Assembly: GCA_035280085.1 (NCBI GenBank)
Contig: DATEGM010000204.1
Coordinates: 1 to 34,280 of the forward strand
Direction of reading: 5' to 3'
Origin: Terriglobales bacterium
GTDB lineage: Bacteria > Acidobacteriota > Terriglobia > Terriglobales > Acidobacteriaceae
DNA length: 34,280 nucleotides
The position numbers were made by a program, and so were the translations under genes. Below are positions 4,997-34,280 of the stretch, in pieces. Position 1 is the first letter of the stretch. Each line of letters begins with the position of its first letter. Under the pieces are notes generated by a model. That model was not told where the DNA came from, did not search any database, and was given only the letters and a program-made list of their open reading frames with translations.

Positions 4997-6020
4997 GCCG
5001 CCGGCCAAGGCCCACATTGTGCTCGTTCTGGCACTGTGCACGCTCTTCTGCCTTAGTGTCGAGGTTGTCACCGCGTACTTTTTTGGCCGGGTGAGCCGTA
5101 TCGAAAGCCGCCGAGAAGGCGAATACCGACAGGCAATGACAGTTCGCTCCGGCAAGCCGCGCGGAAAGCTGTCGGTACTGGTCGCCGGCAATTCCCTCTT
5201 GCTGCACGGCGTGGACTTCCCGGAATTACAGCGGGAGCTGGGACCGGAAGTGGAGCTTCATCGGGTGGTCTTCGAGGACACCTCCTATCTGGACTGGTTT
5301 TATGGCCTCAACCACATTTTCCGTCGGGGCGCCCGGCCGGATGTCGTGGTGCTGCTGCTCTCCCCGGTCCAACTCACCGATGATGCGACCGAGGGCGATT
5401 ACGGCGCCCATATGCTGGTAGACCACCGGGACATTCTCTCCTATGCCCGCGACGTCGGCGCGGACCGTAACCGTACCAGCGTGCTGGCCCTCGATAATCT
5501 CAGTTTCTTTTTTGGAACGCGCACCGAGATTCGCACCTGGATTTTGGGCAAGCTTCTGCCCGATCTTCCCCGCCTTACGCGCTACTTCCGAGGCAACTCA
5601 GATGCTCCCGCGTACTCCGTTCCAGTTGAGGTTGCCACCAGCCGGCTGGCGCGGTTGCGCGCGACCTGCGGCCGTTACGGAGCCGCTTTTGTGTTGACTG
5701 TCCCGCCTACCAGAACGGACTCTCCCGCCGATACCCGGGTAGTGGAAACAGCGGGCGCCAGCCTGGGTGTGCCTGTGCTGGTCCCGGTAGACGAGGGTGT
5801 GCTTCCGCAAAGCGATTACGCTGACCTGGTGCACCTGAATCCCCATGGCGCTGCCCGGTTCACGCCGTTGTTTGCCGGTAGGTTGCGGCCATTCGTCGGC
5901 GGAGGCATGACGGCGCAAGCAGCTACTGCGCCGGCGACGCAACCCTCGGCTTCCCTGCGCGTCACCGCCAGGGAAACGGACGGCGGACAGTTAACAAGCT
6001 CATCAAATACACCCAAATAG
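4971..6020 (+). CDS. Membrane-anchored SGNH/GDSL-like protein, putative acyl-transfer partner of the MBOAT
   Basis: 349 aa. The start overlaps the MBOAT stop by 26 nt. Positively charged N-terminus followed by one TM (IVLVLALCTLFCLSVEVVTAYFF). Block-I-like VLVAGNSLLLHG (Asn replaces the usual Asp of GDS) and block-V-like DLVHLNPHGA (DxxH). Family assignment is by motif only. Confidence 0.5.
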   Translation: MRSSISSSKPPAKAHIVLVLALCTLFCLSVEVVTAYFFGRVSRIESRREGEYRQAMTVRSGKPRGKLSVLVAGNSLLLHGVDFPELQRELGPEVELHRVVFEDTSYLDWFYGLNHIFRRGARPDVVVLLLSPVQLTDDATEGDYGAHMLVDHRDILSYARDVGADRNRTSVLALDNLSFFFGTRTEIRTWILGKLLPDLPRLTRYFRGNSDAPAYSVPVEVATSRLARLRATCGRYGAAFVLTVPPTRTDSPADTRVVETAGASLGVPVLVPVDEGVLPQSDYADLVHLNPHGAARFTPLFAGRLRPFVGGGMTAQAATAPATQPSASLRVTARETDGGQLTSSSNTPK

Positions 6021-8541: not shown

Positions 8542-9291
8542 CTACTCGCCCGGATTCTCCGAAGCTGGCGCCAGTACTCCTGCCGAATTATCTTCCAGAG
8601 TGCGCGCAAACAGCACCAACTCCACTCGTGACGACATACCTAGCTTCTCAAAAATGTGGAACAGGTAATTTTTAATGGTGTGTTCGCTGAGTTTGAGCTG
8701 CTGGGCGATTTCGCGGTTGGATAAACCTTCCGAAACCAGTTGAGCCACTTGCTGTTCGCGCTTGGACAACGGGACCTTGCCGCTGGCTTCAACCAAGCGC
8801 GGCGGAGCCACGCGGGCGAAAGCGTCCAACACGGATTCCAACTGCACGCTGTTGGCCCAGATTTGCCCGGCATGCACCGCCTCGATGCACCGGCACAAGG
8901 AGTTGAGAGAATCCTCCCGGCAGAAAATCCCCTTTGCCCCGGCGCGGAAAGCATCAATTACCAGCCCGGGTTCGGCGGAGTCCAACAGCAGAATGGTGCG
9001 GATTTCCGTGGATTGGGCGCGGAGTTCTCGAACCGCCGCAAAGCCAGACAGAGATCCGTCCTGCAGGCTCGCGCTAATGAGCGCTACGCTGGGTCGGTTG
9101 GCTCTGGCTCCGGACAGTATCTGCTCGGAGTTGGTGGCGCGGGCCACTATCTGTATGCGCCGATAGCGCTGCAGCGCCGTGATCAACAGCTGACAGTTCA
9201 TCCGGTTCCCATCCGCTACCAGTAAGCGGACAGTAGAGGAACGGAAATTCTTTGATTCCGAGCTGCGGATTGTGGCTCGTCTCTCTGGCAT
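8542..9291 (-). CDS. NarL/FixJ(LuxR)-type response regulator with an atypical receiver domain
   Basis: REC-like N-terminal half (VRLLVADGNRMNCQLL...PSVALISASLQDGSLSGFAAVRELR...TILLLDSAEP...GAKGIFCRE) plus a C-terminal LuxR HTH (LSKREQQVAQLVSEGLSNREIAQQLKLSEHTIKNYLFHIFEKLGMSSRVEL). ATG at 9291 chosen; the longest ORF starts at TTG 9309. Confidence 0.8.
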   Translation of the reverse strand: MPERRATIRSSESKNFRSSTVRLLVADGNRMNCQLLITALQRYRRIQIVARATNSEQILSGARANRPSVALISASLQDGSLSGFAAVRELRAQSTEIRTILLLDSAEPGLVIDAFRAGAKGIFCREDSLNSLCRCIEAVHAGQIWANSVQLESVLDAFARVAPPRLVEASGKVPLSKREQQVAQLVSEGLSNREIAQQLKLSEHTIKNYLFHIFEKLGMSSRVELVLFARTLEDNSAGVLAPASENPGE

Positions 9292-9342
9292 CGTGCGTAG
9301 AATTAACAACTTACAGCCATCTAGGGGAAACCACTGAAATGC

Positions 9343-9585: not shown

Positions 9586-10002
9586 TTGAAGCTTGGCGTG
9601 GTTCACGTAACATGCTTGTATCCCGGGTCCCTGCCGGCGAGAGCGGCATTTTCAGTGGAACGCCGAAAATCAACACGCTTCCGATTGCGCTGTGAAGTCA
9701 CCTGCATCTGGCACGATCGCCATGGTGTAGCCAACACCATCATCGGTGTTGCCCAGGACATCAGCGCAGGGGGCTTGTTTATTACTTCGCCGGGTTGGCC
9801 CTGGGTGGGAACCTTTGCAACGGTTGACATTCAACTGCCCAGCCGCGGTCCCTTTGCCCAGCAGCTGCAACTGCATGGCAACGGGCGGGTGGTGAGGGTG
9901 GTTCAGGATGGTGCCAAGAGCGGCTTCGCGATTGCGGGAAAGCCTGGCTGGACCATTACCAGGGAACGCAAGGCCGCGGCTGCAACACCTGTAAGCCGAT
10001 AG
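9586..10002 (+). CDS. Stand-alone PilZ-domain protein (predicted c-di-GMP receptor)
   Basis: Both halves of the PilZ c-di-GMP motif are present: RRKSTR (RxxxR) and DISAGGLFI (D/NxSxxG). The longest ORF starts at TTG 9586. An in-frame GTG at 9655 would give MERRKSTRFRL..., a more typical PilZ N-terminus. Confidence 0.8.
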   Translation: MKLGVVHVTCLYPGSLPARAAFSVERRKSTRFRLRCEVTCIWHDRHGVANTIIGVAQDISAGGLFITSPGWPWVGTFATVDIQLPSRGPFAQQLQLHGNGRVVRVVQDGAKSGFAIAGKPGWTITRERKAAAATPVSR

Positions 10003-16458: not shown

Positions 16459-17937
16459 GTGTTTTCCCGAATCGCAACGCAGAGATTCTCGAGGTTTTCC
16501 AGGCCATCTACGCGACCCTTGGCCGCAGGTTCGCGCTCGCATTCCGAAGCATGGCTGAAATCGGCTAGCGGTATTCTCGCCATTCTTGTGCTCGCAATCA
16601 CAACCGGCAATGCTATCGCGACCGAGAAATGGGTTTACGTTCTTATCGCGGTGGCGGCCATCGTCGCGGTGCAATGGCCCATTGAAGCTGCCTTAAGCCT
16701 CTATGCTTTTCTCGTGCCCTTTGAAGCGGTCAGCGCCCTCGGCTCCGGCAATGCAGGGGTCACCCTCAACTGGGCGGTTGGAGCGTTGGCCGGCATGGGG
16801 TTGCTTGTGGCTGGCATTGCCAAGCAACGCCTGTCAATGCCATCGCGCACGGTGCTGCTGTGGCTGGCTTTCTTGTTCTGGGGAATACTGACCATGGCCT
16901 GGGCGGTCGAACCCGCGGCGGCTAAACAAATCCTGCCCACCGCCGTCGCCCTGGTCTTCCTGTATGCACTGGCGGCGTCCTGGACGGTCACGAAAAAGCA
17001 ATTACTGCTGCTCTGCGGTTTCGCAGTAGCGGGCGGATTCCTCGCCGCGATTGCGGTCGTCTATCTGTACAGGTCAGGCGTGACCTATGGGACCTGGACA
17101 CAGACCGCGCGCGCATCCCTGATCGTAGCCAACCGGGAGACGAACCCGAACGGAATCGCCGCCGAGCTTCTGCTTCCGATTTCTCTTGCCGTTAGCTGGT
17201 TCATTTCCGCCCGCCGCCGGAGTGCAATGGTGGCAGCGTTCGTTATGTTCGCCATTATGAGCTACGCTGCCTTTCTGACCATGTCGCGGGCGTTTGTCGT
17301 TGCCTTCGCGGTCATGTTCTGTGTTTTCATCTGGAGGCTCAGGCTCAACCGCCGTCTTGTCACACTGGCCGCTGCCATTTTGGCTCTGGCTGTTTCTCTA
17401 CCTTCCCTCTTCTTCGTCCGACTTCAAGAAGCGCTCGCAACCCATGGTGCGGGCCGCCTTGACATCTGGCAGGCCGGGTTTGCTGTTCTGAAGGCCTACT
17501 GGCTGCCCGGCGCCGGCCTCAACAATTTTCCCGTCGTTTACCAGGCCTATGCGGGATACGCGAACGAGTTTACCGGCTTCAACCGCGGTTCTCACAACAT
17601 GTATCTCAATGTTACGGTTGAGCTCGGAATTGTCGGTTTGGTATTGATGTCGGCCGCTATGCTTAGTGAATTTCGTGCCGTAACCAAACTTCGGTCGGCT
17701 CTCGGCGGCACTCTGCCGCTCGTCACCCTGGGTCTGGAAGCCGCTTGCTGGGCAGTCTTGGCCAACGCTTTCTTTGGAGACATCTTGTGGAGCAAGCCCT
17801 TTTGGGTGAGCTGGCTGTTGCTGGCTATGGCGGTTCGGCTGGGACGCGAATCCGCCGCATCCAAGGAACCCGTAAGGGTGTCGGAGCCGGATTCTGGAGA
17901 GTTTTCTACCCGCTACCAGCCTTGGAGGGTCATTTAG
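16459..17937 (+). CDS. O-antigen ligase/polymerase-like (Wzy_C family) polytopic membrane protein, probable repeat-unit polymerase
   Basis: 492 aa with roughly 10-12 hydrophobic segments. A loop with AHNMY-like motif (FNRGSHNMYLNVTVELGIVGL) is typical of the O-antigen ligase/Wzy family. Context is next to wzx and wzc-like genes. GTG start. Confidence 0.7.
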   Translation: MFSRIATQRFSRFSRPSTRPLAAGSRSHSEAWLKSASGILAILVLAITTGNAIATEKWVYVLIAVAAIVAVQWPIEAALSLYAFLVPFEAVSALGSGNAGVTLNWAVGALAGMGLLVAGIAKQRLSMPSRTVLLWLAFLFWGILTMAWAVEPAAAKQILPTAVALVFLYALAASWTVTKKQLLLLCGFAVAGGFLAAIAVVYLYRSGVTYGTWTQTARASLIVANRETNPNGIAAELLLPISLAVSWFISARRRSAMVAAFVMFAIMSYAAFLTMSRAFVVAFAVMFCVFIWRLRLNRRLVTLAAAILALAVSLPSLFFVRLQEALATHGAGRLDIWQAGFAVLKAYWLPGAGLNNFPVVYQAYAGYANEFTGFNRGSHNMYLNVTVELGIVGLVLMSAAMLSEFRAVTKLRSALGGTLPLVTLGLEAACWAVLANAFFGDILWSKPFWVSWLLLAMAVRLGRESAASKEPVRVSEPDSGEFSTRYQPWRVI

Positions 17938-17983
17938 TAAGGACGTAGAGCCGTAAACTCCTTGGCTTTCAGGATCTCCTTTC

Positions 17984-19324
17984 ATGCCTCAGCTTCTTCT
18001 CATTGCTTATGGTTGCCCGCCGCGCATTGATGCGGGATCAATCCGGCCCACCGGCATCATGAAGTACCTCCCTCGCTTTGGATGGGAGGTTACAGTGCTT
18101 ACGCCCGAATTGCCGCCGGGCCCACGACCTCCCGCAACCATCATTGAAACCGGGTACAGCAATGTCCTCGATGAGTGGAAGGCTAAGATCGGGCTGGACC
18201 CGAAAAGCACCGTGCACGAGCAATTGCGGCTGTCGCAATCAGCCAATCCATCGTCCCGGCGGCTCCACACCACGCTTCTGGAAGCTGCCAAATGGGTGAT
18301 TGCTTATCCCGATGAGACCAAGGGTTGGATTCGGTTTGCAAAGGAAACTCTGTCGCGGGTGGGCCGGGAACTCAGGTTCGATGCCATACTGAGCACTTAC
18401 CCGCCGGCGCCCAGCCCCATGATCGGCGCCTATGCGCGCCAGGTTCTGAACTGTCCTTGGATTGCGGATTTTCGGGACCTCTGGGGCCAACAACGTCACT
18501 GGGGCGTGCGCCAGATTATGCAGCCTTTTTATGCCCGGCTGGAACGAAAAACCTTAAGAAAGGCTGATGCACTCGTCACCGTCTCCGAGCCTTGGGCGCT
18601 TCGGCTCCGGGAAAGGTTCCCGACGAAGCCCGTGTATACCATCACTAACGGTTTTGACCCGGCAGATTTTAGTACGGCTCGCCCGCCCCTGACCAAGCGC
18701 TTTTCAATTACGCACGCGGGATATCTTTACGATGGCATGCGTGATCCTCGTCTCTTGTTCGAAGCGCTGCGTGAGCTGATCGCTAAAGGTATGGTGGACC
18801 GGAACGATGTCGAAGTGCGCTTCTATGGCCCAGCCGAAGCCTGGCTTTTCCAACTTGTGGAGAAGTATGGATTGCAGGGCGCGGTGAAGGTGTGCGGCGT
18901 GGTTCCACGAGCGGAGGCCTTGCAGCGTGAGGCTGAGTCTCAGATCCTCTTGCTGCTGGGCTGGTCTGACCTTCGTGAAACCGGCCAGCACACCGGAAAG
19001 CTTTTCGAATATTTGGGCTCGGCCAGACCTATTCTCGCGCTGGGCGGTGCTCGCGGGGTGTTGACCGAAACCCTGGAGGAAACCCAAGCCGGCAGGCACG
19101 TTCAGAGCGCTGAGGAACTGCAGCAATATCTGCTGGCAGCCTATAACGAGTTTAAGCGCAGCGGTTCGGTTTCCTACAATCCTGACCAGCGCGCGATTGC
19201 TCAGTACACACATGAGCAGATGGCGTGCAGGTTCGCCGAAGTATTAAACGCGACCGTGGAAAATCGCCGCGCAGACTTGTCGAATTTGTCCTGCGACGAT
19301 GCTGTCGCGCACAGCCTTAGCTGA
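17984..19324 (+). CDS. GT4-like (GT-B) glycosyltransferase
   Basis: 446 aa. N-terminus LLLIAYGCPPRIDAGSIRPTGIMKYLPRFGWEVTVLTP and C-terminal GKLFEYLGSARPILALG block resemble GT-B sugar transferases. Confidence 0.7.
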   Translation: MPQLLLIAYGCPPRIDAGSIRPTGIMKYLPRFGWEVTVLTPELPPGPRPPATIIETGYSNVLDEWKAKIGLDPKSTVHEQLRLSQSANPSSRRLHTTLLEAAKWVIAYPDETKGWIRFAKETLSRVGRELRFDAILSTYPPAPSPMIGAYARQVLNCPWIADFRDLWGQQRHWGVRQIMQPFYARLERKTLRKADALVTVSEPWALRLRERFPTKPVYTITNGFDPADFSTARPPLTKRFSITHAGYLYDGMRDPRLLFEALRELIAKGMVDRNDVEVRFYGPAEAWLFQLVEKYGLQGAVKVCGVVPRAEALQREAESQILLLLGWSDLRETGQHTGKLFEYLGSARPILALGGARGVLTETLEETQAGRHVQSAEELQQYLLAAYNEFKRSGSVSYNPDQRAIAQYTHEQMACRFAEVLNATVENRRADLSNLSCDDAVAHSLS

Positions 19325-19387
19325 TCACTCCACATAAAACGACGTTTTCAGGACCGGGCCGCTTGCGCCCGGATCTTCAGGGCTCAC

Positions 19388-21559
19388 ATGACAGGCAATA
19401 AGAACGGCAAGGTCGAGATCAAGCCGCTCCGCATCGGGATCGCGGGCTGCGGCAAAGTCGCACGCTATCATGCTCAATTCATCCGGGAACAGAGCGACGC
19501 CAGGCTGGAGGGCGTGGCGGATGTTGCGCAGGACGCGGCTCGCGCATTCGCCGCCGAATACAACATTCCGGTTGTGAAGGACTGCGTTACTTCCCTGCTG
19601 GACGACGTTCCTTTGGATGTGCTGCATGTGGTAACCCCGCCTGCCTACCACTACCAGTGCGCCCGGGCTGCTCTGGACCGGGGCGTGCACGTGTTCCTGG
19701 AAAAGCCCATGGCCTTCACCGCGGCCGAGGTTACCGATCTTTACGAGCGGGCCGCGGCCGCGGGCGTGTTGCTGTGCCCGGACTTCATTCATCTCTTTCA
19801 CCCTCGCATGCGGGAATTGCTGGGTGCCGTGGAATCAGGAAAACTGGGCAAGCCGGTGCACGTTGAAAGCCGGCTGTGCATCAATCTGGAGGAAGAGACC
19901 CCGGATTTGCGGGAGGCCGTCGGCCTGCATTGGAGCCATCTGCTGCCGGGAGGCATGCTGCGCGATTACGCGGCACATGCGCTTTACCTTGCGCTTTACT
20001 TCGCCGGCTGGCCCAGCCAGATCCAGGTGACCAGCAGAGCTGGTGGCATTCTGCCCCAGGGGCTTCCTGATCACCTGACGGTTCAGATAGACGGAACCCA
20101 ATGCACGGCTACGGTTCTGCTTTCCTGCGGAATCAAGCCCTCGTCTCTTGGTGTGCGTGTACTCTGCGAGCGGGGTTCAGCCGAGGCCAGCTTCGACACG
20201 CAAACTGTCCTGGTGCGGGGGCAGAGCCCGCTTCCGCGACGCATTGCGCTGGCCACTTCGAATTTCACCGATTCCTGGCGCCTCTCCACTACCGCCGTGA
20301 GCAATATCGCGAATTACTTGCGCGGCAAGGTGGTCCCCTACGCCGGACTTAGAAGCCTGCTTCCCGCTTTCTACGCGAGCGTCCGCAATTCCGATCTGCC
20401 TCCCATCCGCCGTGAGTTAGCCAGCGCCGTCAGTATGGCGGAAGAGACAATTTTTGCGAATGCGCCGCAGGTGGCTACCCAGGGTGTTGGTTCGCCCTCC
20501 GTACAAACTGACCTTCGCCACAAGGAAAAAGTTCTGGTAACCGGCGCTGCCGGATACATAGGCAAAGCCGTGGTAACCGCGCTGGTGCAGAACGGCTATT
20601 ATGTGCGCGCGCTGGTTCGACCCACAAGTTCAGTGGAGGCACTTAAGCGGCTGGGCGTGGAAATTTTCTTGGGCGACGTTCGATCTTTTGAAGACCTGAA
20701 TGCTGCAGCGGCCGGGATGGATCTTATCGTACACCTGGCTGCGGGGCTGCGTGGTTCCGAAAAATTCGTAGTGGAGAGTTCGGTGCAGGGCACGCAGAAC
20801 GTCTCGCGGGCCGCCCTCCTGCAACGGGTAGAGCACGTCATTTACATGAGCTCCATGTCGGTTCACGATATGGCTGCCATGAAGAACCGCCAGACTATCC
20901 GCGAGGATAGCCCGCTGGAGGCGAACGCTGAGGTCAGAGGCGCCTACTCCCTGGGCAAAAGACGGGCCGAGGACATCGCGCTGCAGCATTTGGGAGATAA
21001 AAGCCCGGCGTGGACCATTCTCCGCCCCTCCCTCGTTGTGGGGCGTGGCGGGGATGCCACCGGAGCGGCGGGATGGATGCTGGGCCGCAATCTGGTTTGC
21101 CTCAGCAGCCCGCGGAAGCGCTTGTTGCTGATCCACGTGGAGGATGTCGCGGCCGCGATCGTACAAATCATCCAGCACAAAAGCACGCGCGGGAGAATCT
21201 ATACTCTCTCCCAGCCCGAACGCATTACGCTGCGGCAATACGTGAACGCGTGCATTCGGACGCAGCACGACGTGCGCGCCATCTATGTTCCCTACTGGGT
21301 CGCCATGCTGGGAGTAGCCGCAGCCAAAACAGCTAAGAAACTACTCGGACGCGGACCCAGCCTGAACCGGCGGCGGTTACTCTCTGTCTATCGCAATTTG
21401 AATGCGGATTGTGAACGGCTACGCCAGGACACCGGCTGGCAACCCGCCCCAGGGTTGCTGCAGCGGCTGGGAGCTGCTGGCGAGAGTCAGGTTATTGAAC
21501 AGCAGCCCGCGATCAGCCAGATGACTGCGGCCGAAATTGATGTCCCGACCACGACCTAA
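19388..21559 (+). CDS. Bifunctional fusion: N-terminal Gfo/Idh/MocA oxidoreductase plus C-terminal NAD(P)-dependent SDR epimerase/dehydratase-like domain
   Basis: 723 aa. N-terminal half has LRIGIAGCGKVARYHAQFI...VVTPPAYHYQCARAALDRGVHVFLEKPMA (Gfo/Idh/MocA Rossmann plus EKP motif). From about residue 378 there is KVLVTGAAGYIGKAVVTAL (GxxGxxG), LIVHLAA, and YSLGKRRAE (YxxxK). Confidence 0.8.
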   Translation: MTGNKNGKVEIKPLRIGIAGCGKVARYHAQFIREQSDARLEGVADVAQDAARAFAAEYNIPVVKDCVTSLLDDVPLDVLHVVTPPAYHYQCARAALDRGVHVFLEKPMAFTAAEVTDLYERAAAAGVLLCPDFIHLFHPRMRELLGAVESGKLGKPVHVESRLCINLEEETPDLREAVGLHWSHLLPGGMLRDYAAHALYLALYFAGWPSQIQVTSRAGGILPQGLPDHLTVQIDGTQCTATVLLSCGIKPSSLGVRVLCERGSAEASFDTQTVLVRGQSPLPRRIALATSNFTDSWRLSTTAVSNIANYLRGKVVPYAGLRSLLPAFYASVRNSDLPPIRRELASAVSMAEETIFANAPQVATQGVGSPSVQTDLRHKEKVLVTGAAGYIGKAVVTALVQNGYYVRALVRPTSSVEALKRLGVEIFLGDVRSFEDLNAAAAGMDLIVHLAAGLRGSEKFVVESSVQGTQNVSRAALLQRVEHVIYMSSMSVHDMAAMKNRQTIREDSPLEANAEVRGAYSLGKRRAEDIALQHLGDKSPAWTILRPSLVVGRGGDATGAAGWMLGRNLVCLSSPRKRLLLIHVEDVAAAIVQIIQHKSTRGRIYTLSQPERITLRQYVNACIRTQHDVRAIYVPYWVAMLGVAAAKTAKKLLGRGPSLNRRRLLSVYRNLNADCERLRQDTGWQPAPGLLQRLGAAGESQVIEQQPAISQMTAAEIDVPTTT

Positions 21560-28026: not shown

Positions 28027-28072
28027 TTCTCAAGCGCTACTCGTCTGAATCTTTTTTCCAGCAAGGTGATAC

Positions 28073-30265
28073 ATGCAAGGTTCCCCTAAGGCAGGTAAGG
28101 CATTTCTATTGTTCGCCGCGGTGTTGCTGCTGGTGACAGCGCTTCCCGCCCAGGTGTCAGTTCCGACGCAGTCGAATAACCCGGCTCGCACGGGCTGGAA
28201 CAACCAGGAGACCATTCTTAATACCTCCAACGTGAACATGGCCAATTTCGGCAAGCTTTTTGCCCTGAATGTGGATGGCTATATTTACGCCCAGCCGCTG
28301 TACGTGTCCAATGTCACGATTAACGGCACGACACACAACGTGGTGTACGTGGCCACTGAGCATAACAGCGTCTATGCTTTTGACGCCGACAGTCTGGGTC
28401 CAGCCCTTTGGCAGGTGAGTGTTAACGGAGCCGGAACGCCGGTTGACAGCAACGATATCTGCGCGGCCACGGGACAGGCGAACTATTGCGCCGACCTGAT
28501 TCCCGAGGTGGGCATCACCGCGACCCCGGTGATTGACCCGTCTACGAAAACTATGTATGTCGTTGCCGAGACCAAAGATTCCTCCTATCACTTCAAACTG
28601 CATGCGCTGGACATCACTTCGGGCGCGGAGCGGCCTGGCAGTCCGGTGGAAATTGATGGCAGCGACCAGACGCCCCCGCTCAACCAACTGATTCAGCTCA
28701 ACCGGCCCGGCTTGCTCCTGCTGAATGGTAAGGTGTACACCGCTTTCGGCTCCAACGGCGACTTTGCCGTAAACAGTGTGTATTGGCACGGCTGGATTTT
28801 TGCGTACGACGCAACCACCCTGCAACGAAAAGCTGTGTTTGACGTTTCGCCCAACAATGGATATCTGGCCGCGGGCGGCATTTGGCAAGGCGGCAAGGGC
28901 TTAGTCAGCGACGGTACCTACATCTATGTGGCCACCAGTAACGGCAGCTCTACCGACTGGCAAGGCGGGAATGACTACGCCTCCAGCTATTTGAAACTCG
29001 ACCAGAATTTGAACGTGGTGGATTGGTATGCGCCCAACAACCAGTCCTACCTGAACACCAATCCCGGCAACGTTGACATCGGCTCCGGCGGCCCGGTGCT
29101 GCTGCCCAGTTCCCCAGCCGTGCTGGTTGGCGGCGGCAAAGATGGCATTTTGCGGGTGATGAACACCGGTAACCTGGGCAAGTACAACGCAGCTAACGAC
29201 AATAACCTGCAGAACTTTCAGGCCACCAACGCCTACCCGAACGGAATGATTTTCGGCGGGCCCGTCTTCTGGAATAGTCCTCAGAATGGTGGCGTGCTTT
29301 ATCTGTGGGGTCCTGGAGATGTAATTAGAGGCTGGAAGCTGGTGGGTACCACCTTCCAGACTACTCCGGTCACACTCGGTACTATTCAAAATCAGCCGAG
29401 CGAGGATACTCTGGCTGCTCTGTCTATCTCCTCCAACGGTAGCCAGGCGGGAAGCGGCATTGTCTGGGCCTCACGCTTTCTGTCCCTGCCCCCTTCGGGT
29501 ACAAACAGCAAGGTTGCTCCCGGCGTTCTCACCGCCTTTGATGCCGATAATTTAGGCACTGAATTGTGGGATAGCCAGCAGAACTCCAATCGTGACGCGG
29601 TGAACGAGTATGCCAAGTTCGTGCCTCCCACGGTCGCGAATGGGAAGGTGTACCTGCCCACTTGGGTGGGGCCGAACGTTATGGGACAAAACTCTGGACA
29701 ACTGCTGGTCTACGGCCTGCTCAATTCCGTAAAGCAGGTTTTCAGTCTGAGCGGATCGCCCAGTGCCGTGACCGTCAGTCCGGGGCAGTCGGCAAAATAC
29801 ACCATCACTATTAACAGCAACGGCTTTAACGGCGCGGTTAACCTTGCCTGCTCGGCGCTGCCTGCGGGTGCGAACTGCCAGTTCGCCAGCAACCCCACCA
29901 ACGCAGGCTCGTCCACGACGTTGACCATTACTACCCAGGCGCCTTCCACCGCGCTTCTGCGGCCGGCGCCAGGAAAATGGAGCCTGCTCCCGTTGTACGG
30001 AGTGTTGTTGCCACCCCTCGGCCTCGTCCTGGCGGGTGCGGGCCTGGGCTCGCGCTGGCGCAAGCTCATGCTGGGGCTCTTCGCCGTGCTGCTGCTTTCT
30101 CTGGTTCTTGTGGCCTGCGGCGGTGGCGGTTCCTCCTCTGGTGGCGGCGGAGGTGGAGGTGGCGGCGGTGGCGGCACGCCCGCAGGCTCCTATAGCGTGA
30201 TCGTGACTGGAACTCCGAGCAGCGGCTCGCAGCAGTTCACCACCATAACTTTGACCGTGCAGTAG
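28073..30265 (+). CDS. Secreted PQQ-like-repeat beta-propeller protein with C-terminal Ig-like module interrupted by a hydrophobic hairpin (paralog 1)
   Basis: 730 aa. Signal peptide MQGSPKAGKAFLLFAAVLLLVTALPAQV. About 530 aa contain recurring beta-propeller blade signatures (VVYVATEHNSVYAFDAD, MYVVAETKD..YHFKLHALD, NGKVYTAFGS, WHGWIFAYD, YIYVATSNG, GKDGILRVM, ANGKVYLPT). Then comes an Ig-like beta-rich segment, two hydrophobic helices, poly-Gly, and a final TLTVQ strand. It shares many identical blocks with the next gene. Confidence 0.7.
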   Translation: MQGSPKAGKAFLLFAAVLLLVTALPAQVSVPTQSNNPARTGWNNQETILNTSNVNMANFGKLFALNVDGYIYAQPLYVSNVTINGTTHNVVYVATEHNSVYAFDADSLGPALWQVSVNGAGTPVDSNDICAATGQANYCADLIPEVGITATPVIDPSTKTMYVVAETKDSSYHFKLHALDITSGAERPGSPVEIDGSDQTPPLNQLIQLNRPGLLLLNGKVYTAFGSNGDFAVNSVYWHGWIFAYDATTLQRKAVFDVSPNNGYLAAGGIWQGGKGLVSDGTYIYVATSNGSSTDWQGGNDYASSYLKLDQNLNVVDWYAPNNQSYLNTNPGNVDIGSGGPVLLPSSPAVLVGGGKDGILRVMNTGNLGKYNAANDNNLQNFQATNAYPNGMIFGGPVFWNSPQNGGVLYLWGPGDVIRGWKLVGTTFQTTPVTLGTIQNQPSEDTLAALSISSNGSQAGSGIVWASRFLSLPPSGTNSKVAPGVLTAFDADNLGTELWDSQQNSNRDAVNEYAKFVPPTVANGKVYLPTWVGPNVMGQNSGQLLVYGLLNSVKQVFSLSGSPSAVTVSPGQSAKYTITINSNGFNGAVNLACSALPAGANCQFASNPTNAGSSTTLTITTQAPSTALLRPAPGKWSLLPLYGVLLPPLGLVLAGAGLGSRWRKLMLGLFAVLLLSLVLVACGGGGSSSGGGGGGGGGGGGTPAGSYSVIVTGTPSSGSQQFTTITLTVQ
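29951..30175 (+). other. Insertion-like segment inside paralog 1: TM helix, RWRK, second helix ending in lipobox-like LVAC, then GGGGSSSG12
   Basis: Encodes ALLRPAPGKWSLLPLYGVLLPPLGLVLAGAGLGSRWRKLMLGLFAVLLLSLVLVACGGGGSSSGGGGGGGGGGGG. An in-frame ATG at 30068 begins MLGLFAVLLLSLVLVAC|GGGG, which reads like a complete lipoprotein signal peptide (Cys codon 30116-30118). Confidence 0.6.
30119..30175 (+). repeat. Low-complexity GGN/TCN codon tract (Gly4-Ser3-Gly12)
   Basis: ggc ggt ggc ggt tcc tcc tct ggt ggc ggc gga ggt gga ggt ggc ggc ggt ggc ggc. Mixed synonymous codons mean this is not a perfect microsatellite. It generates the poly-Pro shadow ORF on the opposite strand. Confidence 0.9.
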
Positions 30266-30295
30266 AACCATTTTCCGAGGCTGTTGGAGAGGTAA

Positions 30296-33200
30296 ATGAC
30301 CCTTAAGGCCCTTCCCTGCTCTGTTGATCAACTACAAGGCTGCTCGTGCTCCAGTGGCGAACGCATGGCCAACCTAGTGCGCTGGCTACCTGTGCTGCTG
30401 GTGGCGTTGTGCCTTGTTCCTCTTGCCTCAGCCCAAACCTGCAACTCCCCTAGCCCTGTGCCTGTTTGGACCAACCACAACGACAACTGCCGTACAGGCC
30501 AAATCCAGGAGACCAGCCTTACTACTTCCAACGTAAACGTCAGCAACTTCGGCAAACTGTTCATGCGCACGGTGGACGGCTACATTTACGCCCAGCCGCT
30601 GTACGTGCCGGGGCTGACCATCGGCGGCAAGACCCGCAACGTGGTCTTTGTAGCCACGGAGCACAATAGTGTCTACGCCTTCGATGCCGATGATCCCACG
30701 GCATCGGCGCCGCTGTGGCATGTCACGCCCACGACTCTGGGAACCTCTGTGCCCAGCGGCGACGTGTGCATCGGCTTGTCCATTGCTGAATGCCCTTATA
30801 AGGACCTGCTCCCGGAAATCGGCATCACCGGCACCCCCGTGATTGACACGGCAAGCGGCACTATTTATGTGGTCGCTAAGAGCAAAAACACCAGCAACAA
30901 CACATACCACTTCAAATTGCATGCCCTCGACCTGGTAACCGGAGGCGAAAAATTCGGCGGCCCGGTTGAGATCACTGCCAGCGTATCCGGCACAGGGTCG
31001 GGAAGTTCGGGCGGCACCATTACCTTCAAGGCGCTGAACCAGATGAACCGGCCGGGGCTGCTCTTGCTGAACGGCATGGTCTACGTTGGCTTTGGCTCGG
31101 TGGGCGACGTGCCTCCGTGGCACGGCTGGATTTTCGCCTACACCGCTTCCAACCTGCTGGCAACTCCGACAGTATTCATCGCTACACCTAATGGCGACAG
31201 TGCGGGCTTCTGGGCCGCGGGACAGGGTCTGGCGGGCAACATCGTAAATAACACAGCGTGGATTTATGGCGCCACAAGCAATGGACTGTTTGATGTGAAC
31301 ACCGGGGGCAAGGACTATGGCGATACCATCCTCAAGCTCAACGCCTCTTCCGGCCTGACGGTGGCCGATTACTTCACGCCCCACGACCAAAGCTTTTTGG
31401 ATACCGGCAACGTGGATCTGGGCTCCGGCGGGCCGATGCTGCTGCCCAACACCACTGATCTGGTGAACATCGGCAAGGATGGATACTTGCGCCTGATGGA
31501 CACCACGACAGGAAAAATGGGCGGATTCAATGCCACTACGGATCAGAATTTGCAGAACATTTTAGTGACCAATGGCACAAATTCTTTCGCCTTCATGGGC
31601 AGCCCCATCTACTGGAACAGCCCTAATAATGGGCCGGTCATCTACTTCTGGGGCCCCGACGACTTCCTCAAAGCATATAAGTTTGTGAATGGATTGTTCC
31701 AAACTACACCGGTGTCGCAGGGCACCATCCAGGGCACGGCCGGCTATTCCAACAGCATGCCGCTGTCGCTTTCCGCGAACGGCAGCCAAAGCGGTACGGG
31801 AATCGTGTGGGCCACCGCTCCCCTGGGAGATGCCAGCGAGCAGACGGTAACAGGAATCGTGCGCGCCTTTGATGCCACCGACCTCGGCAACGAATTGTGG
31901 GACAGCAACCAGAATCCTGGCCGCGATGCCCTGGGCAACTATGCCAAGTTCACGCCGCCGACGATTGCCAATGGAAAGGTATACGTGCCCACCTTCTCTG
32001 ACGCGCTGGTGGTGTACGGGTTGAACCCTCCTGCGGCGAGCAGCATCACCTTTATGCAGGTGGCGGCCGCCACGCCGCAATCCAACTCCGCCAGTGTTCC
32101 GGTTGCTTACCCCCAGGCGGAAGTGGCCGGCGACCTGAACGTTGTCGTGGTCGGCTGGAACGACACGACCTCCTCCGTCAGTTCGGTCACCGATACGCTC
32201 GGGAATACATACACCCTCGCGGTCGGCCCGACCACCGCTTCCGGCGCGCGGCAGTCCATCTATTACGCCAAGAACATCAAGGGCGGCAGCAATACGGTTA
32301 CGGCCAACTTCACCCAAGCCGCGGTCTATCCTGACATTCGGGTTCTGGAGTACGCGGGCGCCGATACCACTAACCCTCTTGACGTGACTGCCGCTGCCGT
32401 CGGCAGCAGCACCACTGCGAACAGTGGCTCGGCCACCACCACCGCTGCCAACGACCTCATCTTTGGCGCCGACACTGTCGCCACGGGTACCCCCGGGCCT
32501 GGTGCGGGATTCACCACTCGCATCATCACTACTCATGATTCCGATCTCGCCGAAGACGAGATCGGCCCCACGCCCGGTTCTTACTCTGCCACGGCTCCGC
32601 TTTCCCCGAGCGGATATTGGGTCATGCAGATGGCCGCGTTCAAGGTTCAAGGCAGCGGCAGCGGCACTCCTGCGCCGACCGTTAGTTCGGTCTCGCCCAA
32701 CTCCGGCTCCACGAATGGCGGCACGAGTGTGACCATTACGGGCACGAACTTTTCAGCCGGCGCTACCGTCACCTTCGGCGGCACCGCTGCGAGCAACGTG
32801 AATCTAGTAAGCAGCACCTCAATTACCGCCACCACTCCGGCCCACGCCGCCGGCGCGGTCAACGTGGTGGTCACCAATAGCGGCGGGCCCAGCGGAACGC
32901 TGACGAACGGCTTTACCTACACTACGTCCACCGGCAATCCCATCACCTTCGTCCAGGTTGCCGCTGCCACGCCCCAGGGCTCTTTCGCCGCGGTTCCGGT
33001 GGGCCCACTAACGAAAGCTCAAACGGCCGGCAATTTGAACCTGGTAGTAGTGGGCTGGAACGACACTACGTCTTCAGTTTCTTCTGTCACCGATTCGTTG
33101 GGGAACACTTACTTCCTGGCAGTAGGGCCGACCACCGCTTCCGGCGCGCGGCAATCCATTTACTACGCCAAGAACATCAAGGCCGGCAGCAACACGGTAA

Positions 33201-33550
33201 CTGTAAACTTCAGCCAGGCGGCGGCCTACCCTGATGTTCGCGTTCTGGAATACTCGGGCGCAAGCACCACCAGCCCCATTGATCAAGTCATTCCTGGCGT
33301 CGGCAGCAGCACCACCGCCAGCTGCGGACCCCTAACCACCTCGGCCGCCAACGAGGTGATTTTCGCTGCCGATACTATCGCCACCGGCACTCCCGGCCCG
33401 GGCGCCGGCTTTACTGCCCGCATCATCACCACCCATGATTCCGACCTGGCTGAAGACAAGCCAGCAGCCACGGCCGGGTCTTACTCCGCTACCGCCCCCG
33501 TCTCTCCTGGTGGCTACTGGGTCATACAGATGGTCACCATAAAACAGTGA
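30296..33550 (+). CDS. Secreted PQQ-like-repeat beta-propeller protein with C-terminal [202-aa module]-IPT/TIG-[202-aa module] (paralog 2)
   Basis: 1084 aa. Blocks identical or near-identical to paralog 1: NFGKLF, VDGYIYAQPLYV, VATEHNSVYAFDAD, PEIGITGTPVID, YHFKLHALD, NRPGLLLLNG, WHGWIFAY, GSGGPMLLP, FQTTPV, NGSQSGTGIVWA, ELWDSNQN, YAKFTPPTIANGKVYVPT. ATG 30296 has GGAGAGG (30286-92) upstream. A canonical signal peptide (MANLVRWLPVLLVALCLVPLASA|Q) only begins at the in-frame ATG 30365. Confidence 0.7.
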   Translation: MTLKALPCSVDQLQGCSCSSGERMANLVRWLPVLLVALCLVPLASAQTCNSPSPVPVWTNHNDNCRTGQIQETSLTTSNVNVSNFGKLFMRTVDGYIYAQPLYVPGLTIGGKTRNVVFVATEHNSVYAFDADDPTASAPLWHVTPTTLGTSVPSGDVCIGLSIAECPYKDLLPEIGITGTPVIDTASGTIYVVAKSKNTSNNTYHFKLHALDLVTGGEKFGGPVEITASVSGTGSGSSGGTITFKALNQMNRPGLLLLNGMVYVGFGSVGDVPPWHGWIFAYTASNLLATPTVFIATPNGDSAGFWAAGQGLAGNIVNNTAWIYGATSNGLFDVNTGGKDYGDTILKLNASSGLTVADYFTPHDQSFLDTGNVDLGSGGPMLLPNTTDLVNIGKDGYLRLMDTTTGKMGGFNATTDQNLQNILVTNGTNSFAFMGSPIYWNSPNNGPVIYFWGPDDFLKAYKFVNGLFQTTPVSQGTIQGTAGYSNSMPLSLSANGSQSGTGIVWATAPLGDASEQTVTGIVRAFDATDLGNELWDSNQNPGRDALGNYAKFTPPTIANGKVYVPTFSDALVVYGLNPPAASSITFMQVAAATPQSNSASVPVAYPQAEVAGDLNVVVVGWNDTTSSVSSVTDTLGNTYTLAVGPTTASGARQSIYYAKNIKGGSNTVTANFTQAAVYPDIRVLEYAGADTTNPLDVTAAAVGSSTTANSGSATTTAANDLIFGADTVATGTPGPGAGFTTRIITTHDSDLAEDEIGPTPGSYSATAPLSPSGYWVMQMAAFKVQGSGSGTPAPTVSSVSPNSGSTNGGTSVTITGTNFSAGATVTFGGTAASNVNLVSSTSITATTPAHAAGAVNVVVTNSGGPSGTLTNGFTYTTSTGNPITFVQVAAATPQGSFAAVPVGPLTKAQTAGNLNLVVVGWNDTTSSVSSVTDSLGNTYFLAVGPTTASGARQSIYYAKNIKAGSNTVTVNFSQAAAYPDVRVLEYSGASTTSPIDQVIPGVGSSTTASCGPLTTSAANEVIFAADTIATGTPGPGAGFTARIITTHDSDLAEDKPAATAGSYSATAPVSPGGYWVIQMVTIKQ
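32045..32650 (+). repeat. Intragenic duplicated module, copy 1 (606 bp / 202 aa)
   Basis: ITFMQVAAATPQ...VVVGWNDTTSSVSSVTDTLGNTYTLAVGPTTASGARQSIYYAKNIKGGSNTVTANF...RVLEYAGA...GTPGPGAGFTTRIITTHDSDLAEDE...GYWVMQMAAFKVQ. It aligns without gaps to copy 2. Long identical nucleotide runs include ccgaccaccgcttccggcgcgcggca and tacgccaagaacatcaagg. Confidence 0.9.
32651..32941 (+). other. IPT/TIG-like Ig-fold domain between the two duplicated modules
   Basis: PAPTVSSVSPNSGSTNGGTSVTITGTNFSAGATVTFGGTAASNVNLVSSTSITATTPAHAAGAVNVVVTNSGGPSGTLTNGFTYT matches the IPT/TIG pattern (P.I..v.P..G...GGt.vtI.G.nF....v.fGg..a..v...s.t.i.c.tP......v.V.v...g......ftY). Confidence 0.7.
32942..33547 (+). repeat. Intragenic duplicated module, copy 2 (606 bp / 202 aa)
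   Basis: ITFVQVAAATPQ...VVVGWNDTTSSVSSVTDSLGNTYFLAVGPTTASGARQSIYYAKNIKAGSNTVTVNF...RVLEYSGA...GTPGPGAGFTARIITTHDSDLAEDK...GYWVIQMVTIKQ*. It is the same length as copy 1, offset 897 bp. By eye, roughly three quarters of residues are identical. Confidence 0.9.
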
Positions 33551-33591
33551 CGGTGATCTGAGCGCATTTCCTCTTGCGGTCCTCGTCTGCA

Positions 33592-34280
33592 ATGAACCTG
33601 TCTACCGTTACTCCTAAGCCGGCAAAGGTCATCCACGACGCGGGTTCCCCTCCAGCCACCCGTCAGAGTGCATCCCTGCCTAACCCTGCCCTCGTCAAGC
33701 TGGCCTGGGCGGCTGTGGGTCTCGGCTGCCTGTTGCGTCTGCTCGAGTACCTGTTGAACCGCTCGCTGTGGCTAGATGAAGCCTACCTGGCGCTGAACAT
33801 CCTGCATCGCCCCTGGGCAGGGCTGCTCCGGCCGCTCGACAATCACCAGGGCGCGCCCATCATCTTTCTGCTGCTGGAAAAATCGGCCTCTCTGTACCTC
33901 GGCTCGAGCGAATATGCCCTGCGGCTGCTGCCACTCGTGGCCGGCATCATCTCCATGTTGCTGTTCTACAAGCTTGCCGGCAAAGCCATCAGCGGCGTCG
34001 CCACACCCATCGCGCTCGGCCTTTTCGCCATCTCCCCGTCGCTGATTTACTACTCCTCGGAACTCAAGCAATACTCGTGTGACGTAGCGGTTGCAATTTT
34101 GCTTTATTTCCTGGCTATCGAGGGCAGCGATGGCAGCTGGAAACCGTTAAAGGTGGTGACATTTGGCTTAGCGGGCGCAATCGCCATATGGGTATCCCAT
34201 CCTGCCACCTTCGTGCTGGCCGGTATCGGCGCGACCCTCTGCATAGCGCTGATCGCGCAGAAAGACTGGGCCAGGCTGCT
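33592..34280 (+). CDS. GT-C fold membrane glycosyltransferase, PMT_2/ArnT-like (GT39/GT83-type); N-terminal part only, runs off the right edge
   Basis: Not in the ORF track (no stop in window). Stop-free translation from ATG 33592: MNLSTVTPKPAKVIHDAGS...LVKLAWAAVGLGCLLRLLEYLLNRSLWLDEAYLALNIL...GAPIIFLLLEKSASLYLGSSEYALRLLPLVAGIISMLLFYKLAGK...LGLFAISPSLIYYSSELKQYSCDVAVAILLYF. It has the SLWxDEAY first-loop DE motif and the following helix pattern typical of ArnT/PMT-like enzymes. Confidence 0.7.
   Translation, partial: MNLSTVTPKPAKVIHDAGSPPATRQSASLPNPALVKLAWAAVGLGCLLRLLEYLLNRSLWLDEAYLALNILHRPWAGLLRPLDNHQGAPIIFLLLEKSASLYLGSSEYALRLLPLVAGIISMLLFYKLAGKAISGVATPIALGLFAISPSLIYYSSELKQYSCDVAVAILLYFLAIEGSDGSWKPLKVVTFGLAGAIAIWVSHPATFVLAGIGATLCIALIAQKDWARL

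Follow-up and report, generated by a model that had tools for sequence, protein, structure and literature searches.

Paired propeller proteins of quinoprotein ancestry in a Terriglobales Wzx/Wzy locus and their possible action on its polysaccharide

What do two large adjacent genes, neither of which belongs to a recognized family, contribute to a bacterial polysaccharide locus? The question arose from a 34,280-nucleotide stretch of a Terriglobales bacterium contig (DATEGM010000204.1 of assembly GCA_035280085.1, hereafter the window), where two genes on the same strand, here called P1 and P2, follow the last sugar-nucleotide gene of a polysaccharide gene set. A preliminary description of the window placed open reading frames (ORFs) of 730 and 1084 amino acids (aa) behind gaps of 46 bp (28027-28072, after an epimerase gene) and 30 bp (30266-30295, between P1 and P2), and proposed that they encode secreted propeller proteins that process or anchor an exopolysaccharide (EPS). 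When the longest ORFs are used, these coordinates and lengths are exact. Our analysis points to P1 and P2 being anciently duplicated, Sec-exported, carbohydrate-active proteins derived from quinoproteins, and probably enzymes that act on the polysaccharide of this locus; we give this reading about an even chance of being correct.

P1 and P2 share a domain that is 50% identical over 550 aa (BLASTP, E=2e-153), and the identical blocks singled out in the preliminary description all occur in both proteins (VDGYIYAQPLYV, VATEHNSVYAFDAD, YHFKLHALD, NRPGLLLLNG, WHGWIFAY, ELWDSxQN and ANGKVYxPT). The signal peptides it assigned were also recovered from hydropathy, as a canonical hydrophobic signal at residues 5-32 of P1 and a hydrophobic signal-like segment at residues 27-46 of P2. 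The longest P2 ORF, which has a strong ribosome-binding site, places 23 additional aa with four Cys (MTLKALPCSVDQLQGCSCSSGER; 30296-30364, + strand) ahead of this segment; translation could instead start from an internal ATG at 30365, and the gap between P1 and P2 would then be 99 bp. A long N-terminal extension is also present on the P2 ortholog of the related locus L088 and on none of those of L002, L004 and L007. The shared ~550-aa domain marks an uncharacterized family: none of Pfam, NCBIfam and the PDB assigns it above threshold. The Pfam model PQQ_2, named for pyrroloquinoline quinone (PQQ), scored 17.2 bits against a cutoff of 27.6, the NCBIfam PQQ-dehydrogenase families gave no match at E<=1, and PDB searches with the P1 sequence and with the family profile returned low-complexity or chance matches only and no quinoprotein.

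Structure prediction was more informative about the fold. An AlphaFold2 model of the P1 propeller, built from a 32-sequence alignment (predicted local distance difference test 80, predicted template modelling (TM) score 0.85), has eight four-stranded blades closed by an N-terminal strand at residues 59-67. In a Foldseek search of the PDB the top 19 matches were PQQ alcohol or methanol dehydrogenases (E=1.4e-14 to 9e-11, TM-score ~0.5, 11-17% identity), with 1KV9, 8GY2, 1YIQ, 1KB0 and 4AAH among the top matches and BamB and tetrathionate hydrolase ranked after them. The core of both proteins is thus predicted to be an eight-bladed propeller of the PQQ/BamB type, which the preliminary description had guessed. 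Its further idea of a dedicated glycanase or lyase was not supported: the best 50 of the 546 significant Foldseek matches (down to E=1.8e-7) include no propeller lyase, hydrolase or glycosidase, and a Pfam scan of P1 and P2 found no lyase or hydrolase signature. The propeller lyases of PL11, PL22, PL24/25 and PL42 do have a beta-propeller domain, and AlgL, PslG, PelA and BcsZ resemble P1 and P2 in their position in an EPS locus and, by analogy, in export to the periplasm. None of these gave a sequence match to P1 or P2 or appeared among the best 50 Foldseek matches, and the analogy is one of position only. With no match in the Pfam scan or among those 50 structures, we rejected membership in the propeller polysaccharide lyases; a lyase mode of action could still apply.

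To place the family relative to quinoproteins, a profile of 232 family sequences was compared by hhalign with a profile of nine true PQQ dehydrogenases. The sequences retrieved for the comparisons were E. coli Gcd and BamB together with eight annotated plasmid-borne PQQ dehydrogenases of the methanol/ethanol family, one of them an MxaF followed by moxJ. The two profiles aligned over 456-457 colinear columns with probabilities of 96.1% (E=3.7e-9) in local mode and 98.6% (E=9.6e-15) in global mode. Against single sequences (Gcd, MxaF or BamB), one blade motif was aligned in each case, and the nine-sequence profile was needed to reveal the homology. Because the probabilities are high over 456 colinear columns, the family is, as judged from profiles, a true if distant relative of the quinoprotein dehydrogenases across all blades. 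Like MxaF, XoxF, ExaA/PedH, the quinohaemoprotein alcohol dehydrogenase and E. coli Gcd, the P1/P2 propeller has eight blades, is about the same size and carries 'A-x-D-x-x-x-G-x-x-x-W' blade motifs, and it is predicted to share their periplasmic location.

The cofactor site is another matter. Whereas the retrieved reference PQQ dehydrogenases conserve the classical methanol dehydrogenase (MDH) active-site residues, a strict alignment keeps two of the 13 cofactor, metal or catalytic positions in the family (MDH numbering throughout). The Ca ligand N261 corresponds to N290 of P1 (N in 221/232) and R331/K493 to K356 (K in 231/232). At the remaining positions, E55, R109 and T159 align with Y72, E145 and R211; S174 with N228, in a column that is mostly His in the family; E177 with F231, in a variable column that adjoins the near-invariant D230; and the catalytic base D303 with Y326, again in a variable column. 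The invariant D335 lies inside a neighbouring 6-residue insertion, and its distance to the next strand A (-6) equals that of D303. W243, N394 and W476 fall on gaps. The columns of the vicinal Cys103-Cys104 pair hold C139 and A140 in P1, with Cys in 50/232 and the second column variable, although this pair is also absent from Gcd and hence is not universal to quinoproteins. Among the PQQ contacts E55, R109, T159, S174, W243, R331, N394 and W476, a conserved equivalent exists only for R331. Read from this alignment, the pocket of the PQQ-dehydrogenase ancestor is not intact in the P1/P2 family and appears to have been mostly lost or rebuilt. The preliminary description had treated a PQQ-dependent dehydrogenase with an intact site as the outcome that would tell against its proposal; the homology turned out to be present (96-98.6%) and the intact site did not.

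These data bear directly on whether P1 and P2 are genuine PQQ-dependent, or other quinone-dependent, dehydrogenases that oxidize sugars or the polysaccharide with diverged ligands and pass electrons to a separately encoded acceptor. The homology extends over the whole propeller, PQQ dehydrogenases are the best structural matches, and the equivalents of N261 and R331 are essentially invariant. Moreover, D335, W271 and D230 lie 1-9 residues from the columns of D303, W243 and E177 and could be their structural equivalents, so that shifts in the alignment could restore up to ~5 of the 13 sites; re-alignment of D303/D335, W243/W271 and E177/D230 with sub-profiles was uninformative, given how short the segments were. 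In soil Acidobacteria and other phyla, PQQ enzymes have also been described whose substrates are carbohydrates and whose genes lie in polysaccharide loci (10.64898/2026.07.10.737718). On the other hand, most PQQ-carboxylate and metal ligands are replaced or deleted in the strict alignment, the vicinal disulfide is lacking and the proteins fall below threshold for every curated PQQ model. Unlike PQQ dehydrogenases, P1 and P2 also have no cytochrome domain or partner: the CXXCH haem motif occurs in 1/147 family representatives, and we found no cytochrome gene in the window or the syntenic loci. The family further differs in its Ig/TIG, lectin-type or membrane-anchor extensions. We regard a working PQQ dehydrogenase as improbable.

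Across the 232 members, which are 36-58% identical to P1 and come from six phyla, ~47 positions are >=95% invariant, ~20 of them polar, and P2 retains 46/47. The invariant polar positions include D68, T95, T151, R211, W241, W271, N290, D335, K356 and D508; R211 is Arg in 230/232, and D335, W271 and D508 are each >=95% invariant. All of those listed other than W241 are proposed to line a funnel on the top face of the propeller, the putative active centre. There is a precedent for such reuse of the fold in other chemistry. The tetrathionate hydrolase of Acidithiobacillus (6L8A/7CQY; Foldseek E about 1e-9) has an eight-bladed propeller like that of PQQ dehydrogenases and is not known to need PQQ. 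It differs from P1 and P2 in having no detectable sequence relationship to them, an inorganic sulfur substrate and no association with polysaccharide loci or carbohydrate-binding modules.

The P1/P2 family has a very large membership: when 1.84 billion representatives clustered at 50% identity were searched with its profile, 36,666 proteins were retrieved at E<=1e-3, of which 7,321 reached E<=1e-30. On one-genome-per-species contigs the relatives are mostly from Acidobacteriota, with several paralogs per genome, and others come from Verrucomicrobiota, Myxococcota (including a complete Sorangium genome), Chloroflexia, Armatimonadota and Planctomycetota. Their source annotations read 'hypothetical', 'PQQ-binding-like beta-propeller repeat protein', 'BamB' or 'IPT/TIG domain-containing', and a literature search found no paper on the family and no characterized member. 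Among 49 diverse multi-domain representatives, Pfam identified fusions to Malectin (4), Malectin_like (4), F5_F8_type_C (3), Lectin_legB (3), RicinB (3), PA14 (2), BACON (2) and WSC (1), and family propellers are also fused to DUF1349 and DUF4082 as well as to Ig, FN3 and TIG spacers. Judged by domain composition, this is the standard architecture of carbohydrate-active enzymes (CAZymes). The fusions to sugar-binding modules tie the family to glycans independently of gene neighbourhood, and their repeated occurrence suggests that the family probably acts on carbohydrates. An enzymatic role is favoured because of the many invariant polar residues, the two retained active-site equivalents and the CAZyme-like fusions.

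Gene order suggests which carbohydrate may be involved. We identified 12 homologs that are >=51% identical to P1. Six of these (P0002, P0009, P0010, P0012, P0060 and P0062) occupy the position equivalent to that in the window, between Wzx and glycosyltransferase (GT) genes on one side and a P2-type gene and a membrane protein gene on the other; P0002 is from a near-identical relative of the window and is not independent. This cassette of Wzx, GT, P1, P2 and membrane protein was found in loci L002, L004, L007, L088, L102 and L104. Another five of the 12 lie beside other polysaccharide genes, namely Poly_export with the protein P3 described below; Wzy with exosortase EpsH/EpsI; PMT_2 with a beta-helix protein; a deacetylase with a Pel9A-like protein; and GT2, deacetylase, GH16 and glyoxal oxidase genes. 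The last, P0034, has no polysaccharide context. It belongs to a 618-aa propeller-TIG subfamily in Ca. Sulfotelmatobacter (L005/L006:6983-9175 and 17302-19572) and its flanking genes encode two histidine kinases that match PilZ weakly and a MacB-type permease.

Within the canonical loci, P1 is the best match of the first propeller gene (50-57%) and P2 that of the second (57-64%). The duplication is therefore old and both copies have been maintained, and by these identities the P1-P2 pair is orthologous across the canonical loci and predates these lineages. The surroundings are less stable: sugar-nucleotide genes lie 5' of Wzx in L004, L007, L088 and L104 and 3' of Wzx in the window and L102. 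Because the triad of P1, P2 and membrane protein stays intact (50-64% identity) while the flanking order varies, we argue that selection has acted on its linkage. Other genes come and go in these loci. Paired carbamoyltransferase genes with a DUF5989 mini-ORF (L001/L002:2513-6374, L088:196-4212, L104:652-4351) are absent from the window, and this pattern suggests that decoration of the polymers differs between loci. Beyond the membrane protein gene, further genes of 574-619 aa recur (L004:18579-20345, -; L102:12140-13999, -; L102:14097-15821, -; L007:15681-17414, +); they had no Pfam match, L004 and L007 having been scanned and L102 taken from pre-computed annotation.

The third member of the triad is encoded by an ORF on the + strand that starts at 33574, 23 bp 3' of P2, and continues past the end of the window. 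Its Pfam match to PMT_2 (1.4e-5, 25.8 bits against a cutoff of 26.1) and its match to TIGR03663 (1.5e-7) are both below cutoff. Full-length orthologs of ~535 aa, 53-60% identical, lie directly 3' of the P2-type genes in L002, L004, L007 and L088, and a gene of matching size is at the same place in L102 and L104, the one in L104 being pre-annotated as a weak PMT_2. The ORF corresponds to the 5' part of this conserved gene, whose polytopic membrane protein product resembles PMT_2/Agl23 (GT-C-type) proteins at sub-threshold level. A Rosetta-stone link between the propeller and this GT-C-like protein through one DUF2079 fusion was dropped when phmmer found no relationship.

In related loci the gene set continues beyond the membrane protein up to a Wza-type exporter. 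Immediately upstream of the Poly_export (Wza) gene is a gene for a protein of 909-977 aa, here P3 (L088:17773-20499; L104:17023-19956; L090:3767-6529), with the layout module-TIG-TIG-module-Ig-invert_tail. By its domains P3 looks to be the C-terminal cassette of P2 without a propeller, joined to the anchor of P1. P1 and P2 had been placed at the distal end of their operon, which the ORF 23 bp after P2 and the continuation of six related loci to a Wza-type exporter contradict: the window ends inside the cassette, and therefore P1 and P2 are not at the operon's distal end. The best explanation of these arrangements is that one clade of the family was recruited into Terriglobia Wzx/Wzy loci as a fixed cassette of P1, P2 and the GT-C-like protein, with P3 beside Wza.

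The anchor just mentioned gives substance to the earlier suggestion that P1 is tethered to a membrane. P1 ends in a tail recognized by the NCBIfam model NF058595 (lipo-invert), which runs from the end of an Ig-like domain through a transmembrane helix (636-659), the basic cluster SRWRK, and a hydrophobic helix leading to the lipobox LVAC (Cys-680) to a Gly/Ser linker and a terminal beta-hairpin (...TLTVQ). P1 thus has the full layout of NF058595 proteins, and the same anatomy is kept in nine P1 relatives and in P3, with the lipobox as L-[AS]-[AG]-C in relatives; L088:20170-20499 is another instance. The signature is present in 58/120 close and 11/147 diverse family members. Because of its order of helix, basic cluster and lipobox, the tail resembles a stop-transfer helix with an internal lipoprotein signal peptide behind it, and processing is presumed at Cys-680. 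The C-terminal hairpin, which lies beyond the inserted membrane segment, seems to contribute the last strands of what we take to be an Ig-like domain at residues ~556-625. We found no paper describing the lipo-invert tail, which is documented by the sequence model alone.

P2 ends instead in two ~200-aa modules, 75% identical to each other, on either side of a TIG domain, and this cassette is the one shared with P3. The AlphaFold2 model of the module is of high confidence (predicted local distance difference test 96.8, predicted TM-score 0.93) and all-beta, with ~15 strands. The module had no Pfam or NCBIfam match at E<=10 and no significant Foldseek match in the PDB (best E=1.6e-3, TM<=0.34), and the literature search yielded nothing relevant to it. 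It nevertheless has at least 1,485 homolog clusters, and it is found in P2-type propellers, in the propeller-less P3, often in small proteins, either by itself or linked to TIG/FN3, and in one case together with a glyoxal-oxidase-type domain (P0277). The preliminary description had seen putative carbohydrate-binding modules (CBMs) here. The duplicated domains are real, and their function as CBMs is a hypothesis since the module matches no known CBM or lectin by sequence or fold.

The shared parts of P1, P2 and P3 also fit an alternative in which the propellers are not catalytic and bind or scaffold glycan, as BamB-like assembly factors or as propeller lectins or matrix anchors, holding the nascent polymer or organizing its export with P3 and Wza. 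The anchor common to P1 and P3, the cassette common to P2 and P3 and the position of P3 next to Poly_export suggest a physical complex; the degraded cofactor site of the ancestral enzyme is also in line with this alternative, and the lectin-domain fusions would also fit adhesins. BamB (YfgL) itself is a cofactor-free, eight-bladed PQQ-like propeller and a strong structural match (TM-score normalized to the target 0.62-0.76), with weak matches to BamB models. In contrast to P1 and P2, BamB is ~350-390 aa, with an N-terminal lipoprotein signal and short loops, whereas the P1/P2 propeller is ~520 aa with ~170 extra loop residues that form long, enzyme-like top-face loops, the N-terminal signal of P1 is of the non-lipoprotein type and the extensions are different. 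The BamB equivalog TIGR03300 was not passed (15.5 bits against a cutoff of 285.2; range 15-23 bits), and hhalign to BamB aligned one repeat only (probability 20%, obtained with the single E. coli BamB sequence and so not like-for-like with the PQQ-dehydrogenase profile). The ~20 invariant polar residues, among them homologs of the quinoprotein active site, are more than we would expect of a pure scaffold. We consider a non-catalytic role rather unlikely.

Several points weigh against the favoured reading of P1 and P2 as enzymes on the polysaccharide. Catalysis is deduced from conservation and CAZyme-like architecture only, and the literature searched held no biochemical or genetic data on any family member. 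Lectin-type propellers could display the same fusions. Repeated motifs can inflate hhalign probabilities for repeat proteins. The conserved polar residues are not significantly enriched on the top face once loop length is considered, as a DSSP blade map counts 14 in ~201 top-loop residues and four in ~88 bottom-loop residues. Gene neighbourhoods across the wider family are also unhelpful. We surveyed up to 10 kb on each side of 80 species-level relatives (36-54% identity); a tblastn search of these loci with 20 EPS proteins of the window found almost nothing (Wzx 0/80), and when the 1,177 neighbouring ORFs were clustered all-against-all, no family occurred in more than nine of the 80 loci, the recurrent ones looking generic and abundant. 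The broad family is dispersed, without conserved synteny. Accordingly, the link to EPS depends on a single clade, and it could stem from the inheritance of just one type of locus.

The lack of enrichment in the 80 relatives means that the association with polysaccharide genes is a property of one clade, as opposed to the whole family. Absence of such enrichment had been named in the preliminary description as evidence against its proposal; that absence holds for the broad family and does not hold for the orthologous subclade. The polysaccharide link, previously drawn from synteny only, is conserved within this subclade and now backed by the sugar-binding fusions, and it is not family-wide. The dispersal of the broad family also raises the alternative that P1 and P2 have no specific tie to the polysaccharide and are general periplasmic or surface proteins of an expanded family that were inherited in the locus, or else glycoproteins on which the adjacent GT-C-like enzyme acts. 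Related Terriglobia are the source of the canonical loci, which could be one vertically inherited locus, P0034 stands apart from polysaccharide genes, and the PMT_2-like enzyme is always 3' of P2. Chance inheritance fits poorly with a triad that has stayed together despite rearranged flanks and the presence or absence of carbamoyltransferases, and the solitary P1-type genes are still beside polysaccharide genes in five cases. We judge this alternative highly improbable.

Returning to the favoured reading, P1 and P2 would act in the periplasm, and we infer that their substrate is the polysaccharide of this locus. Repeat units would first be flipped across the inner membrane and polymerized at its outer face. 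P1, which its lipo-invert tail would hold at that face, may then act on the growing chain, most likely as an enzyme that modifies or trims it, and P2 may act likewise, directed by its two all-beta modules and TIG domain. A bolder version of this proposal is tentative and in our view doubtful: the propeller would represent a new class of carbohydrate-active enzyme with a rebuilt quinoprotein pocket, either cofactor-free or dependent on a cofactor different from canonical PQQ/Ca; the cassette would carry out an unrecognized periplasmic step in the maturation of Wzx/Wzy EPS in Acidobacteriota; and P1 and P3 would have a new type of anchor, an internal lipoprotein signal that splits an Ig-like domain.

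The features of P1, P2 and their flanks are collected in Table 1. The polysaccharide genes upstream of P1 form a complete-looking Wzx/Wzy set. In order, Pfam identified Wzz/BY-kinase (GNVR), a PglF-like dehydratase, a DegT aminotransferase, an initiating sugar transferase, Wzy and GT4, followed by a GFO-epimerase fusion, Wzx, GT1, GT2, a nucleotidyltransferase, a PIG-L deacetylase and an epimerase. Shine-Dalgarno-like sequences precede the start codons of P1 (AAGGTGA) and P2 (GGAGAGG), and no terminator- or promoter-like sites were found in the three short gaps around these genes. Because the gaps are 23-46 bp without a terminator, co-transcription of P1 and P2 with their neighbours is plausible. 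GC content is even across the locus (0.57-0.62), and a horizontal-transfer island was rejected on account of this uniform composition. The nearest database proteins to P1 (90-93% identity) come from Terriglobia metagenome-assembled genomes.

Table 1. Positions of P1, P2, their predicted domains and flanking genes in the window
Feature	Position	Strand	Remarks
Wzx/Wzy-type polysaccharide operon upstream of P1	10127..28026	+	Pfam
NAD-dependent epimerase gene, directly upstream of P1	26941-28026	+	
P1 gene	28073..30265	+	730 aa: signal peptide, predicted 8-bladed propeller, putative Ig-like domain, lipo-invert tail
P1 propeller (predicted)	28160..29722	+	residues ~30-550; AlphaFold2, Foldseek, hhalign
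P1 Ig-like domain (putative)	29738..29947	+	residues ~556-625; weak sub-threshold Pfam: DUF11, fn3_5
P1 lipo-invert tail	29912..30262	+	residues 614-730; NCBIfam NF058595 7.1e-22, 77.9 bits vs cutoff 37
P2 gene	30296..33550	+	1084 aa: signal-like segment, predicted propeller, module, TIG, module
P2 propeller (predicted)	30449..32026	+	residues ~52-577; 50% identical to P1 propeller
P2 all-beta module copy A	32045..32644	+	residues 584-783; 75% identical to copy B
P2 IPT/TIG domain	32675..32920	+	residues 794-875; PF01833 6.7e-18, 64.9 bits vs cutoff 20.9; CoaZ_rpt_PGGG 3e-11
P2 all-beta module copy B	32942..33544	+	residues 883-1083
5' part of polytopic membrane protein gene (GT-C / PMT_2-like)	33574..34278	+	cut by window end

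Other genes of the window lie further upstream. An ORF of 138 aa with a PilZ domain (Pfam 7.2e-7; 9586-10002, +) is immediately 5' of the Wzz/BY-kinase gene and could provide a cyclic di-GMP input to the polysaccharide operon. A LuxR/GerE-type response regulator is encoded at 8542-9309 (-), and orthologs that are 45-46% identical to it lie near solitary P1-type genes (L089:18547-19377, L090:13321-14049). An MBOAT acyltransferase gene (3578-4996, +) is followed by an overlapping ORF of 349 aa without a Pfam match (4971-6020, +); that this arrangement resembles polysaccharide O-acylation pairs is only an idea, offered by analogy.

Some of what is described here was already known, namely the fold, the superfamily and the NCBIfam model of the tail. 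What is new is the recognition that a very large family descends from quinoproteins and has its pocket rebuilt, that family's systematic fusion to sugar-binding modules, the conserved cassette of P1, P2, membrane protein, P3 and Wza, and a widespread all-beta module without a solved relative. In soil, Acidobacteriota rank among the most abundant bacteria, and the exopolysaccharides they make aid soil aggregation and carbon retention. To our knowledge, the EPS machinery of this phylum is almost unstudied. The ~200-aa all-beta module and the lipo-invert tail are widespread and each is worth characterizing. The P1-P2-membrane protein-P3-Wza cassette provides testable candidates for periplasmic maturation or export of the polymer in the Wzx/Wzy pathway. 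If the propellers are enzymatic, the family would represent a large blind spot in catalogues of carbohydrate enzymes and another case in which the quinoprotein propeller was reused for new chemistry.

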